64,000 bases of DNA, taken from the sequence record OR539219.1; one strand, given 5' to 3'. This stretch comes from Escherichia phage vB-Eco-KMB39. The notes below the pieces were generated by a model. It saw nothing but the letters and a program-made list of their open reading frames with translations, was not told the DNA's origin and made no database searches. Positions 1,118-51,872 of the stretch are shown here, in pieces. Each line of letters begins with the position of its first letter. Position 1 is the first letter of the stretch. A program made the position numbers and the translations under genes.

Positions 1118-1675
1118 ATGTGGTCGGCAATTCTAGGATATGAAGTATCATATCATGATACAGTATCTGTTCCAATAGAATTAATGCCAAAGAATAGTAA
1201 TAAAATAGTTGACGCTAAATGTGATTTGTGCGGTATTAAATTTAGTAGAAGCATTCAGCTTTTAAATAGAACACCCACACATGCGTGTAGAAAATGCAGT
1301 ATTAAACAAGTTGCTATTAAAAATTCGGAAGTTCAATCCGGAATAAGCAGACCATGGCAAAGAGGCGATAAACATCCTCGATGGACTGGTAAAAGAAAAG
1401 AGTTTGCATTATATGCTAGTAGAGTTCATTCTATAACTAAGTCAGCTAAAATAAGAAAAATTTGGTCAAAATGGCCGAATGCTGATAAAATAGGAGTGTG
1501 CGGTGTAGAAGGTGCTTATCAACTCGATCATAAAGTATCTATCAAATATGGATTTGATAATTTAATTCCGCCGGAAATTATAGCAAGCGTAAAAAATTTA
1601 GAAATAATCACTTGGGAATCTAACCGAGAAAAGTCAAAAAGAAATAGCGTAGATCTTTGGGATTTACTAGAATGA
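1118..1675 (+). CDS. HNH-like nuclease (putative free-standing homing endonuclease) inserted between genes 18 and 19
   Basis: ORF track frame 1031-1675; first ATG at 1118 (MWSAILG...); two CxxC pairs (CDLCG, CRKCS) and C-terminal DH..N..N motif (QLDHKVSIKYGFDNL...NLEIITWESNREK); flanked by hairpins. Confidence 0.5.
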   Translation: MWSAILGYEVSYHDTVSVPIELMPKNSNKIVDAKCDLCGIKFSRSIQLLNRTPTHACRKCSIKQVAIKNSEVQSGISRPWQRGDKHPRWTGKRKEFALYASRVHSITKSAKIRKIWSKWPNADKIGVCGVEGAYQLDHKVSIKYGFDNLIPPEIIASVKNLEIITWESNREKSKRNSVDLWDLLE

Positions 1676-1682
1676 TTCTAAA

Positions 1683-1700
1683 GGCCTGTTTCGGCAGGCC
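1683..1700 (+). terminator. hairpin after HNH-like ORF
   Basis: GGCCTG-TTTCGG-CAGGCC. Confidence 0.45.
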
Positions 1701-1701
1701 A

Positions 1702-1709
1702 TATAAATA
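1702..1709 (+). promoter_or_regulatory. late promoter core TATAAATA (gene 19, distal)
   Basis: Exact TATAAATA in 18-19 intergenic region. Confidence 0.6.
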
Positions 1710-1760
1710 CACTATATCCTTAATTCTTTAATTCTATATGCCCTAGGTTAAACATAGGGA

Positions 1761-1768
1761 TATAAATA
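1761..1768 (+). promoter_or_regulatory. late promoter core TATAAATA (gene 19, proximal)
   Basis: Exact TATAAATA 15 bp upstream of gene 19 ATG. Confidence 0.7.
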
Positions 1769-1782
1769 CTACAGAGGCTAAT

Positions 1783-2274
1783 ATGTTTGTAGATGATGTA
1801 ACACGAGCGTTTGAATCTGGTGATTTTGCTCGACCTAACTTATTCCAAGTAGAAATTTCTTATCTTGGACAAAATTTTACGTTCCAATGTAAAGCCACTG
1901 CTTTACCAGCTGGTATTGTAGAAAAAATTCCAGTCGGATTTATGAACCGTAAAATTAACGTGGCAGGCGATCGTACATTCGATGACTGGACTGTTACAGT
2001 AATGAACGATGAAGCTCATGATGCTCGCCAGAAGTTTGTTGATTGGCAAAGCATTGCTGCTGGTCAAGGAAACGAAATTACTGGTGGAAAACCTGCAGAG
2101 TATAAAAAGAGCGCTATTGTTCGTCAATATGCTCGTGATGCTAAAACAGTAACAAAAGAAATTGAAATTAAAGGTCTGTGGCCTACTAACGTGGGTGAAC
2201 TTCAATTAGATTGGGATTCAAACAATGAAATCCAAACCTTTGAAGTAACTCTTGCTCTCGATTATTGGGAATAA
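1783..2274 (+). CDS. 19: tail tube protein gp19
   Basis: 163 aa, MFVDDVTRAFESGDFARPNLFQVEISYLG...; two TATAAATA late promoters upstream. Confidence 0.9.
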   Translation: MFVDDVTRAFESGDFARPNLFQVEISYLGQNFTFQCKATALPAGIVEKIPVGFMNRKINVAGDRTFDDWTVTVMNDEAHDARQKFVDWQSIAAGQGNEITGGKPAEYKKSAIVRQYARDAKTVTKEIEIKGLWPTNVGELQLDWDSNNEIQTFEVTLALDYWE

Positions 2275-2281
2275 AATGAAT

Positions 2282-2295
2282 GGGGAGAAATCCCC
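2282..2295 (+). terminator. GNRA-loop hairpin after gene 19
   Basis: GGGGA-GAAA-TCCCC. Confidence 0.45.
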
Positions 2296-2321
2296 ATCCT
2301 GCTTAAAGCAGAGAAGTCCAT

Positions 2322-2329
2322 TATAAATA
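2322..2329 (+). promoter_or_regulatory. late promoter core TATAAATA (gene 20)
   Basis: Exact match 28 bp upstream of gene 20 ATG, after GNRA hairpin. Confidence 0.7.
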
Positions 2330-2357
2330 TAACTATAATTCCCATTTGGAGAATACA

Positions 2358-49449: not shown

Positions 49450-49479
49450 ATAGTATCACACTACTACCCTACTGTAAAC
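49450..49479 (-). promoter_or_regulatory. T4-type early promoter (GTTTAC, TGaTACTAT)
   Basis: Motif upstream of ORF 49182-49424; -10 flanked by TAGGGTA / TACCCTA. Confidence 0.55.
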
Positions 49480-49859
49480 TACTTTTTGAAAGTTTTTCGC
49501 AAAAGTTCAATGATTTCATCTACATTGTTTTCGTCTACAATGCAGTGAATTTTTGTTACGCCAGAAATCTTGTCTTCGACTTCATCTTCTTCAGAAGTCG
49601 GTTCTTTATACTCACGAAAACAATGAAATTCGTCTTCACAAATTTCTAAAAGTCTATCTTTGAGGTAAAAATGCTTTCCATTTGCGCATTCAATGTGTTT
49701 TACTGCTTTATATCCATTAGCGACAGAAACTTCTTTAACTTCAAACCATCCGCCATTATCTCGAATAGCTTTAACTATTGATGAATTAGAACGTGGGCTA
49801 TAATTAATAAATGTATCAATAAGTCTTGGAACAAGTTCATACTTTCTACCAGTATACAT
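49479..49859 (-). CDS. hypothetical protein
   Basis: 126 aa ORF. Confidence 0.45.
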   Translation of the reverse strand: MYTGRKYELVPRLIDTFINYSPRSNSSIVKAIRDNGGWFEVKEVSVANGYKAVKHIECANGKHFYLKDRLLEICEDEFHCFREYKEPTSEEDEVEDKISGVTKIHCIVDENNVDEIIELLRKTFKK

Positions 49860-49878
49860 TGTGTTTTCCTCATTTTAA

Positions 49879-49895
49879 CGGGGCTGTAATAGCCC
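49879..49895 (-). terminator. hairpin after ORF 49904-50134
   Basis: GGGGCT-GTAAT-AGCCCC. Confidence 0.4.
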
Positions 49896-49903
49896 CTTGA
49901 TAA

Positions 49904-50134
49904 TTATTGTTCAATCAGTCCCATATAAAATTCTGCATCTTCAGAATCCATGCCATCACAATATTCATTAGCCATAAAGCGGGTGAGGTCTTCAAGAGGA
50001 CCTTCAATGACAATAGAAAAATTGCAATAATTGGGATCATCATGAATACTTGTGATACTAAGTTCAGGATAACGATTACGAATAATTTCTTCAATATATT
50101 CAAAATCAACGATGTCAATATCAACTTTAGCCAT
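49904..50134 (-). CDS. hypothetical protein
   Basis: 76 aa; early-type promoter upstream, hairpin after stop. Confidence 0.45.
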
Positions 50135-50178
50135 ATTATTTTCCTCTTTTAATCATCAGCAGTATTGCCGATAGTTGT

Positions 50179-50208
50179 ATAGTACCATGGAATGACAAGA
50201 ATGTAAAC
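50179..50208 (-). promoter_or_regulatory. T4-type early promoter (GTTTAC, TGgTACTAT)
   Basis: Motif upstream of ORF 49904-50134, downstream of gene 32 terminator. Confidence 0.55.
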
Positions 50209-50238
50209 TGTTTTGTGAAAAAATTTTAAAATAAAAAA

Positions 50239-50257
50239 GGGGACCTCTAGGGTCCCC
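50239..50257 (-). terminator. rho-independent terminator after gene 32
   Basis: - strand GGGGACC-CTAGA-GGTCCCC followed by TTTTTTATTTT. Confidence 0.7.
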
Positions 50258-50279
50258 AATTAATTAGTAATATAATCTA

Positions 50280-51185
50280 TTAAAGGTCATTCAAAAGGTC
50301 ATCCAGGTCCGTGTCATCAGCACCAGATGAACTGCCAGAGATTGAGCTCATAAAATCATCTTCAGTTTTTGGTTTGAAGTCATCAACATTGAATGCATCC
50401 AAATCATCAGCAACTTTATCAGCTTTCTTAGCAGCAGTTGCAGCGGCACCGCCCATCACAGCAGTTCCCATAACTTGACCGAATTTAGTGCTCAGTTCTT
50501 CAAATGATTTGAATTTATCTTTAGAAGTCATTTCAGAAAGGTCAACCATTTGTTCGAACAGTTCTTTCTGGAAAGATTCATCATCAATGTTTGGAATCGC
50601 AGATTGATTCAGGAATTTAGATTCGTCGTAGTTACTAAAACCAGAAACTTGTTTAACTTTCAGTACAAAGTTAGCACCTTCCCACGGACAAGTTACATCA
50701 ACCGGAGTTTCACCCATTTCAACATCAACTGCAATCATTGCATTGATTTTATCCCAGATTTTCTTACCGAAACGGTATTTAAATACTTTACCTTCATTTT
50801 CTGGAGCAGCTGGGTCTTTTACTACAAGAATGTTAGCCCAGTAAGAAGTTTTACGTTTAACAAGACCGTACTCTTTATTGTCAGTGTTATACAAATCATT
50901 TTTACTGATGTATTGACATACTGGGCAAGAATCGTAATCACCGTGGGTAGATGAACATGTTTCAATATACCATTTACCATTTTTCTTGAAACCGTGATTT
51001 ACAAGAATTGCGAATGGTGCTTGTTCATCATTTTTAGACGGAAGAAAACGAATTACTGCTTGACCGTTACCCGCATTATCGAGTTTCAGTTTCCACTCGC
51101 CTTTATCTTCAGAAGAAAAACCTTTATTGCCATTCAGTTTAGCCATTTGTGCAGCAAGTTCAGCAGTAGATTTACGTTTAAACAT
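50280..51185 (-). CDS. 32: single-stranded DNA-binding protein gp32
   Basis: 301 aa, [50 protein letters not shown]...; acidic C-terminus; classic UUAAA-repeat operator upstream. Confidence 0.95.
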
Positions 51186-51250
51186 TTTATTTCCTTTTTA
51201 ATTTAATTTAATTAACAGTTGGTGCTATGACACTTTACCTCATAGCTGGC
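51186..51250 (-). promoter_or_regulatory. gene 32 translational operator (UUAAA repeats plus upstream pseudoknot region)
   Basis: - strand ...GCCAGCUAUGAGGUAAAGUGUCAUAGCACCAACUGUUAAUUAAAUUAAAUUAAAAGGAAAUAAAAUG, matching the gp32 autoregulatory site as I recall it. Confidence 0.75.
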
Positions 51251-51872
51251 ATAATTCGCAATACTCTGGGTCTTCGAGAGGTATCCAACCTGAGTTGAAA
51301 TACTTTACCATCGATTTAGCAGTTGTATCAGTTATATTTATATTACCTTTAACTCTTCGCCATCCAGGAGTTTTACCGTACAGATTAGAGGATAATAATA
51401 ACACATAATTCTCGTAAGCAATATGAGATAATTTCCAAGACTCTATATTAGCTCGTGATGTTTTCCAAGGTCTAAAATCGTCACGGTTCATATAATTAGC
51501 CAATCTCATATGCTCTCTAACTTCCGGGTCTTTAGCTGGATGAGTTTCACCACTCACACCAAATCCACCACCAGCATATACCAGATTAAAATAGTCTGGA
51601 TTATCTCTGGCATTTACTTCAAGTTGGTATTTTCGTTCTGCTTCAATAACATCCAAGTCATCATCAATTTGAATTATTTTAACGCTCGGTTTTTGAAGCA
51701 TTACCGCATTCAAAAATCTTTTTTGTTTACATGAGCTCCAGTATTCCTTTCCGGAAGAGTCATATATTATTCCGTTCTCAAATGAGCAATTTAATTTACT
51801 ACCGATATAGTAGTATGGCGGAGTCTTATTTTTGACACGGTCTTCAAATGTAAACCAATATACTATATTCAT
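51240..51872 (-). CDS. segG: GIY-YIG homing endonuclease SegG-like
   Basis: 210 aa; N-terminal IVYWFTF...PPYYYIGSK; located between 59 and 32. Confidence 0.65.
   Translation of the reverse strand: MNIVYWFTFEDRVKNKTPPYYYIGSKLNCSFENGIIYDSSGKEYWSSCKQKRFLNAVMLQKPSVKIIQIDDDLDVIEAERKYQLEVNARDNPDYFNLVYAGGGFGVSGETHPAKDPEVREHMRLANYMNRDDFRPWKTSRANIESWKLSHIAYENYVLLLSSNLYGKTPGWRRVKGNINITDTTAKSMVKYFNSGWIPLEDPEYCELCQL

Follow-up and report, generated by a model that had tools for sequence, protein, structure and literature searches.

Phage T4 carries fifteen homing endonuclease genes, which belong to the seg, mob and I-Tev groups (PMC2988022). For four of the encoded enzymes, SegE, SegG, MobE and I-TevI, homing and marker exclusion were experimentally established in T4 x T2 crosses, the targets lying in or near adjacent conserved genes: uvsW for SegE, gene 32 for SegG, nrdB for MobE and td for I-TevI (PMC2988022, PMC2790892). 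T4 MobE is an HNH nicking endonuclease whose target is the 5’ part of nrdB (PMC2790892). Here we describe the homing endonuclease genes in a stretch of 64,000 nucleotides (nt) from Escherichia phage vB-Eco-KMB39 (OR539219.1), which is referred to as the window throughout. The window extends from the 3’ end of gene 18 through gene 38, as derived from its list of open reading frames (ORFs) and the annotated records of T4, PST, T6, T2 and RB3.

Several hundred T4-like phages were matched by megablast. The best full-length matches to bases 1-25000 are Yersinia phage PST and phage T6 with 97.2-97.3% identity. Most 2-kb blocks are 90-98% identical to T4, T2, T6, RB3 and PST, and none of these is closest throughout. 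Because the gene order is T4-like and no single relative is closest across all blocks, the phage is, judged by its sequence, a Tequatrovirus (T-even) mosaic.

Six endonuclease-type genes in the window

The window very probably carries six selfish homing-endonuclease genes, five of them free-standing and one located in an intron.

1070-1675, + strand: ORF between genes 18 and 19, 201 amino acids (aa), GTG start, T6ORF160 / PST ORF163 type, phrog_5104; candidate free-standing homing endonuclease
12802-13419, + strand: segE, free-standing GIY-YIG homing endonuclease, upstream of uvsW
14927-15619, + strand: Mob-family HNH-NUMOD3 endonuclease gene of the T6ORF179 type, in the uvsW/uvsW.1 spacer
42495-43226, - strand: mobE, RB3 allele, 243 aa, between nrdA and nrdB, with N-terminal HNH and C-terminal NUMOD1
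46507-47244, - strand: I-TevI, intron-encoded GIY-YIG homing endonuclease, inside the td group I intron
51240-51872, - strand: segG, free-standing endonuclease, between genes 59 and 32

An earlier note on this DNA had counted six genes of the homing-endonuclease type, and both this number and the families it named are borne out by intact ORFs, family matches and identity to known enzymes. All six ORFs are full length compared with the reference proteins and keep their catalytic motifs. The coordinates given at that time are exact for five ORFs; the first ORF had been started at ATG 1118, and GTG 1070 is the correct start. Two products described as SegE-like and SegG-like were placed in the right family and are actually the T4 orthologues, with 202/205 (98.5%) and 209/210 (99.5%) identical residues, respectively. 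The MobE assignment was likewise right as to the family, the allele being of the RB3 type with 241/243 residues identical to RB3 MobE (99.2%) at the same site. The RB3 protein is recorded under AY262130 and as RB3_226 in NC_025419. SegE, SegG, I-TevI and the RB3-type MobE are thus recognised by near-identity to studied enzymes. For the Mob-family gene at uvsW/uvsW.1 and the gene 18/19 ORF a nuclease role is suggested by homology and architecture.

The distribution of the elements was determined using each element together with 300-bp flanks as query. The records carrying the element are given relative to the related records matched.

Gene 18/19 ORF (T6 type): 69 of 654 records
Mob gene at uvsW: 48 of 501 records
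segE: 158 of 500 records
mobE (RB3 allele): 54 of 594 records
td intron: 198 of 640 records
segG: 140 of 630 records
segD: 53 of 921 records, a total that takes in other genera
nrdB intron: 115 of 835 records, in which the T4 intron query is largely covered

Each element of the window is present in just ~8-31% of several hundred close relatives (48-198 of ~500-650). All five free-standing genes occur sporadically at a fixed site in collinear genomes, and their empty sites are clean. A comparison of six genomes by direct tblastn and by the record annotations gave the following content.

Window: 18/19 ORF present, segD absent, segE present, Mob at uvsW present, nrdB intron absent, mobE of RB3 type, I-TevI present, segG present
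T4: 18/19 ORF absent, segD present, segE present, Mob at uvsW absent, nrdB intron present (defective I-TevIII), mobE of T4 type, I-TevI present, segG present
T2: 18/19 ORF, segD, segE, Mob at uvsW, nrdB intron, mobE, I-TevI and segG all absent
T6: 18/19 ORF present, segD present, segE present, Mob at uvsW present, nrdB intron absent, mobE of T6 type, I-TevI present, segG absent
RB3: 18/19 ORF present (RB3 allele), segD absent, segE present, Mob at uvsW absent, nrdB intron present (full I-TevIII), mobE of RB3 type, I-TevI present, segG present
PST: 18/19 ORF present, segD present, segE present, Mob at uvsW present, nrdB intron absent, no mobE, I-TevI present, segG present

Identical endonuclease content in close relatives, which the earlier note would have counted against its reading, is not what we find; all six genomes differ.

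SegE, SegG and I-TevI with the td intron

These elements occupy the T4 sites and their proteins are 98.5-99.6% identical to those of T4. SegE matches the SegE-specific GIY-YIG model PF19835 with 37.6 bits (cut-off 25), and a late-promoter motif TATAAATA is found 29 nt 5’ of segE at 12766-12773. SegG matches phrog_7504 with an E-value of 1.9e-133. I-TevI is identical to its T4 counterpart in 244/245 residues (99.6%) and matches the Pfam models GIY-YIG, I-TevI_ZnF and I-TevI_DNA-bd, all over cut-off, with a score of 66.8 bits for PF01541 (cut-off 22.6); TIGR01453 scores 191.7 bits. The intron that holds its gene is as follows.

46360-47377, - strand: td group I intron, ~1018 nt with boundaries good to a few nt, within the thymidylate synthase gene at 46048-47924

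Over 1877 nt, td is collinear with its T4 counterpart, gap-free and 97.0% identical, the intron being intact, and its exons align and join as in the intron-less td of T2. The Rfam model RF00028 scores 40.2 bits (E-value 1.7e-8), which falls short of the gathering score (50), since the group I core is interrupted by the ORF. An Rfam scan of the whole window at the gathering threshold gave no match, and the td intron emerges only below it.

MobE and the intron-less nrdB gene

MobE resembles the MobE proteins of T4 and T6 only over the first ~100 residues, where the HNH block is located. The first ~60 residues including this block are near-identical to T4 MobE, identity amounts to 62% over the first 110 aa, and beyond ~105 the two proteins are unalignable. 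Only the HNH end is common to the alleles of T4, T6 and RB3. The window protein matches phrog_655 ‘homing endonuclease’ (E-value 2.4e-57) and NUMOD1 (25.9 bits); the Pfam HNH model reaches 20.4 bits, just under its cut-off of 21.4. Aligning both Mob ORFs of the window with T4 MobB, MobC, MobD and MobE reveals a common HNH block of the form ETHHIIPRCMGG..D..NLV.LT..EHF.AH.

The mobE ATG overlaps the nrdA stop (TAATGA) and the mobE stop overlaps the nrdB ATG (TAATG). T4 mobE has the same insertion site, the same TAATGA overlap with nrdA and the same translational coupling. In contrast, its C-terminal two-thirds differ from those of the window allele, to which the NUMOD1 match belongs. Because the residues past ~105 are unrelated to T4 MobE, target recognition may differ between the two enzymes.

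41317-42498, - strand: nrdB, intron-less, with the T4 intron site at ~41819-41822

The nrdB gene is a continuous ORF collinear with T2 NrdB, and a 600-bp segment seen only in T4 is missing from the blastn map. The nrdB intron with I-TevIII, which T4 holds with a defective I-TevIII, is thus absent here, a difference overlooked by the earlier note. RB3 carries this intron with a full-length I-TevIII directly downstream of mobE, whereas nrdB of the window is intron-less.

Two further observations concern this region. The 5’ two-thirds of nrdB (41822-42496) are just 82.5% identical to T4, the adjoining DNA being 96-97% identical, and NrdB residues ~163-210 are strongly different from T2. This segment may be a hotspot of conversion or target escape, because it adjoins mobE, whose T4 allele nicks 5’ nrdB. 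Moreover, the T4 reference NC_000866 lists a mobE of 141 aa plus nrdB.1, and the resequenced T4 derivative OZ209023.1 has a single ORF of 232 aa; the two records differ by two gap positions in 701 nt. The split annotation of T4 mobE may reflect frameshift errors in the reference or a genuine strain difference.

The Mob-family gene at uvsW/uvsW.1

This gene matches phrog_655 ‘homing endonuclease’ with an E-value of 3.9e-60 and holds NUMOD3 twice (51.8 bits). Its cassette of 678 bp is a clean insertion, T4 and T2 having empty sites and being otherwise collinear. The start is a TTG that overlaps the uvsW stop (TTGA). T6ORF179 and the PST gene named ‘mobD’ are 99.6% identical to it, located at the same site and named homing endonuclease by RefSeq. 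Klebsiella, Proteus, Morganella and SP18-type phages have homologues with 53-69% identity next to the same helicase gene. The closest T4 proteins are MobE (42% over 181 aa) and the N-terminus of MobD (57% over 75 aa).

A Mob-family gene between two pieces of an apparent single helicase gene recalls the host-gene-splitting Aeh1 mobE and T4 mobA (PMC2988022). We considered whether uvsW is likewise split, an idea that stems from NC_000866, in which a fused UvsW of 587 aa is annotated. It was rejected: in T2 and RB3, where no insert is present, uvsW and uvsW.1 are distinct ORFs with 25 nt between them, and according to two papers the fused T4 uvsW ORF is a sequencing error. The Mob gene is therefore an ordinary intergenic cassette. 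Unlike Aeh1 mobE and T4 mobA it splits no gene, uvsW and uvsW.1 being separate ORFs in T4-like phages. In the window (13422-15875) as well as in T2 and RB3, the two are parted by a stop, a GGGCTTCGGCCC hairpin and a Shine-Dalgarno sequence.

The empty segD site

7665-7747, no strand assigned: empty segD site in the gene 23/24 spacer, with a hairpin terminator at 7678-7697 and the late-promoter motif TATAAATA at 7713-7720

The absence of segD and a clean 23/24 junction with only a terminator and a late promoter, both noted earlier, were confirmed. On the blastn map 60 bp stand here in place of the 789 bp that hold segD in T4, and bases 7665-7747 are identical to T2 and RB3. Just 53 records carry segD, and the site is empty in the majority.

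GC-rich hairpins with a UUCG loop are located at 1039-1052, 7680-7695 and 15620-15631, where they border the two cassettes or lie at the empty segD site. They may serve to terminate transcription or to stabilise RNA.

The ORF between genes 18 and 19 as a candidate endonuclease

1032-1674, + strand: cassette of 643 bp directly 3’ of the gene 18 stop, consisting of a UUCG hairpin (1039-1052), a Shine-Dalgarno sequence and the ORF

The cassette replaces 7 bp of T4, and at its junctions the sequence aligns with T4 and T2, where the site is empty. It sits 5’ of the native terminator and late promoters that are seen at the empty site in these two phages. As to the start codon, all homologues begin with MIISKF, which matches the codons after 1070; a GAGGAAA Shine-Dalgarno sequence precedes GTG 1070 by 8 nt, and the same ORF of 606 nt is annotated in PST and T6.

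In the predicted protein a CxxC...CxxC zinc-finger domain at the N-terminus is followed by an HNH-like domain at the C-terminus, which includes D153-H154, N176 and N185. These four residues are invariant in 25 homologues, following the pattern YQLDHxxSxxxGF...NL...W..NR.K, and the equivalent D, H, N and N are without exception conserved in 39 far more remote relatives. The set agrees with the catalytic residues of HNH / His-Me finger nucleases, in which a general-base His follows an Asp or His and is joined by two Asn or His. The ORF itself has no Pfam or NCBIfam match and phrog_5104 is listed as ‘unknown function’; HNH_4 appears with an E-value of 0.078 in 1 of the 25 homologues. Pfam, NCBIfam and a profile search of PDB sequences gave just weak treble-clef zinc-finger matches to the N-terminal part, and Foldseek against PDB returned nothing significant. 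The best structural matches to the C-terminal domain are the HNH nucleases Gme HNH (4h9d) and GVE2 HNH (5h0o). These two are small phage HNH nicking endonucleases with which the domain may have a beta-beta-alpha core in common; the DH...N...N pattern occurs in both.

A profile of the C-terminal domain (1367-1675) matched 4020 cluster representatives with an E-value ≤ 0.001, of which 1367 reach ≤ 1e-10, and in every match listed the DH...N...N domain is C-terminal. No Pfam model covers this family of 4020 representatives. The N-termini of 39 sampled members hold HTH_23, HTH_7, NUMOD3, DUF7487 or KilAC modules. This modular layout of DNA-binding head and nuclease is typical of homing endonucleases. 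Moreover, relatives of the domain match PHROGs annotated as homing endonuclease, HNH endonuclease and endonuclease VII.

We consider the gene 18/19 ORF to be probably a genuine homing endonuclease. A more far-reaching proposal is an undescribed family of free-standing homing endonucleases, in which an HNH-like module is combined with interchangeable heads (helix-turn-helix (HTH), NUMOD3, zinc finger or DUF7487). One branch would be locked to the 18/19 spacer throughout Straboviridae and also in Sinorhizobium phage phiM7. In phages without the gene, its product would cut close to where gene 18 ends (3’) and the gene would thereby spread, its specificity being changed by a swap of the N-terminal head, for which the T6-type and RB3-type alleles would be an example. 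For this full scenario the case appears evenly balanced.

The gene 18/19 ORF: mobile element or resident gene

Full-length homologues of the ORF are found in 239 phage records. Within Tequatrovirus the flanks are 95-98% identical, yet three states occur: empty (~three quarters of the records), T6-type (69 records) and an RB3-type allele. Some cassette is present at the site in 117 of 498 records. The RB3-type and T6-type alleles show only 50% protein identity. Comparing RB3 with the window, the cassette ends, the hairpin, the start and the C-terminal domain are common to both, and ~390 bp encoding the N-terminal domain (~120 aa) are replaced. This head swap has a parallel in MobE, whose alleles retain the nuclease end and have exchanged the other.

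The neighbouring end of gene 18 was inspected as well. Its last 96 nt are unusually variable, most records without a cassette showing 86-93% identity. A codon cluster 65 bp 5’ of the insertion reads IQL in the window, T6 and PST, and ITL in T4, T2 and RB3. As a strict immunity mark for the T6-type allele this cluster was rejected by reason of phage vB_EcoM-G28, and as a possible immunity variant it is a lead only. Pattern scans of IMG/VR, made to extend the variant test, returned 0 and 4 loci, too few to be used. Partitioning single-nucleotide polymorphisms around the cassette in five genomes gave no clear conversion tract. In a metagenomic contig akin to Shewanella phage Thanatos-2, an extra ORF of 206 aa without any Pfam match lies directly after the tail-tube gene; it may be another inserted gene.

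Several points weigh against a full set of six endonuclease genes. Two of the six elements have no characterised orthologue. Nuclease models match I-TevI, SegE and both Mob ORFs, while neither SegG nor the gene 18/19 ORF has a Pfam match. SegG lacks an NCBIfam match, too, and no GIY-YIG domain is detectable in it by a curated model; its assignment therefore rests on orthology to T4 SegG and on phrog_7504. Furthermore, vB_EcoM-G28 lacks the cassette although its gene 18 has the window-type sequence at the 3’ end, and the simple link between cassette and immune target variant is therefore not strict. Finally, wherever the surroundings of full-length homologues were examined, the ORF was flanked by the sheath gene and the tube gene, and this extends to distant phages (Sinorhizobium phiM7, a Gelderlandvirus, Citrobacter Ci1, Aeromonas AS-zj, Shewanella Thanatos-2 and Serratia CHI14). 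Such a fixed position also fits an old accessory gene that was lost repeatedly.

The ORF might accordingly be a vertically inherited accessory gene of the tail module, for example with a nucleic-acid-binding or regulatory role, that is often lost, and the window would then hold five endonuclease genes. The sheath/tube location of every full-length homologue examined agrees with this, as does the lack of any curated nuclease model matching the ORF and the unknown function of its PHROGs family. However, a fixed position is equally expected of an endonuclease that targets a conserved structural gene. Three states coexist within one genus despite 95-98% identical flanks, a pattern that vertical descent therefore fails to explain, and the empty sites are clean. 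In addition, D-H, N and N are invariant in 39 distant relatives whose domain is paired with HTH and NUMOD3 DNA-binding modules, and the best fold matches are HNH nucleases. We thus regard the accessory gene as unlikely and favour an endonuclease for the gene 18/19 ORF.

Homing and the remaining alternatives

In a co-infection with a relative lacking the element, the nuclease would cut or nick the empty allele in or beside the neighbouring conserved gene, as is established for SegE, SegG, MobE and I-TevI in T4 (PMC2988022, PMC2790892). During recombination-dependent repair, the donor would then serve as template for the endonuclease gene and for markers close to it. Repeated rounds of this, together with loss and allele replacement, would lead to a patchwork of presence and absence among relatives. 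By analogy, we infer the same homing mechanism for the gene 18/19 ORF and the Mob gene at uvsW.

The sequence context suggests that expression of the elements is low and coupled or restrained, because the ORFs start with GTG 1070 and TTG 14927, overlap their neighbours (TTGA, TAATGA and TAATG) and, in the case of the gene 18/19 ORF, follow a hairpin. Low, coupled expression has been discussed for the T4 elements (PMC2988022).

Some of the six genes may look intact and nevertheless be inactive or domesticated like T4 I-TevIII, being kept by hitch-hiking or by some other service. I-TevIII of T4 is a precedent, since it is defective yet inherited via the action of MobE (PMC2790892). Moreover, uvsW is flanked by segE upstream and the Mob gene downstream, and nrdB, nrdA and td hold two elements within 4 kb; trans-homing is therefore plausible. 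The weak starts GTG and TTG, suggestive of low expression, point in the same direction. Against this, all six genes are full length compared with the references and have intact catalytic motifs, and the four known ones are only 1-3 residues off the active T4 or RB3 enzymes. Inactive copies among the six seem rather doubtful.

Ordinary homologous recombination and deletion among co-circulating T-even phages, with the endonucleases as passive passengers, is a very improbable source of the pattern: the window is indeed mosaic at all scales with identity to T4, T6, RB3, PST and T2 varying by block, and seven of ~12 structural differences from T4 are unrelated to endonuclease genes, but homing of SegE, SegG, MobE and I-TevI is established from T4 x T2 crosses (PMC2988022, PMC2790892) and the flanks are unusually divergent from cassette-less relatives (86-93% for the last 96 nt of gene 18, 91-95% for the uvsW and segE flanks, 82.5% to T4 for 5’ nrdB). 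Divergent flanks of this kind would fit repeated endonuclease-driven conversion.

Differences from T4

Compared with T4, the window is without segD and without the nrdB intron and its I-TevIII, and its two elements at gene 18/19 and uvsW/uvsW.1 are in turn missing from T4. The earlier note had taken the endonuclease mosaic for the main source of difference from T4. It does contribute, with 5 of ~12 structural differences, but it is not the main source. On the blastn map the endonuclease-linked differences are +643 bp, -789 bp, +678 bp, -600 bp and a swap of ~560 bp in mobE. The others are a longer hoc, a second alt (~3.3 kb region), a 124-bp stretch only in T4, three small ORFs and ~4 kb of gene 37/38 that remain unmatched. 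Of the window-specific DNA ~1.9 kb is endonuclease-related, versus at least ~6.9 kb from the duplicated alt, the longer hoc, the three small ORFs and gene 37/38. The alt and tail-fibre regions are thus larger differences from T4 than the endonuclease genes.

The regions not linked to endonucleases show the following features. The hoc gene (10644-12062, - strand) encodes 472 aa versus 376 aa in T4, with an extra Ig/PKD-type repeat and an internal duplication of ~300 bp. At 24525-28679 (- strand) two full-length Alt ADP-ribosyltransferase paralogues of 685 and 697 aa are arranged in tandem, where T4 has the remnants alt.-1 and alt.-2; the tandem arrangement is likewise found in T6, T2 and RB3. 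The small ORFs absent from T4 are located on the - strand at 37950-38270, 47970-48332 and 48929-49171 and correspond to phrog_2364, phrog_1928 and phrog_3183. All three have PHROGs of unknown function and no Pfam match and are not nucleases, and no additional endonuclease gene was found on checking these window-specific ORFs. From 60028 to 64000, which covers distal gene 37 as well as gene 38, nothing in T4 was matched by blastn, and gp38 comprises 260 aa here versus a T4 gene 38 of 552 nt (183 aa). The tail-fibre tip genes therefore differ from those of T4, and different tip genes would bear on host range.

Significance for T-even phages

A homing-endonuclease mosaic in T-even phages is ordinary and well documented, and all six genes are already present in public genomes. 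The window is one more combination of this known mosaic. Such mosaics explain the marker exclusion between T2 and T4 and much of the small-scale variation in gene content within the genus. The practical value of the analysis lies in a corrected inventory with start codons, the identity of the mobE allele, the absence of the nrdB intron and the empty segD site as the common state.

The gene 18/19 family is the sole part with some novelty and represents a modestly novel lead. In nearly all genome records listed, this ORF is ‘hypothetical’ or of ‘unknown function’. Should its product be an active nuclease, a site-specific endonuclease directed against the most conserved tail genes would join those known, a large nuclease domain family for which Pfam has no model would receive a name, and there would be a natural case in which specificity changes via exchange of the DNA-binding head.

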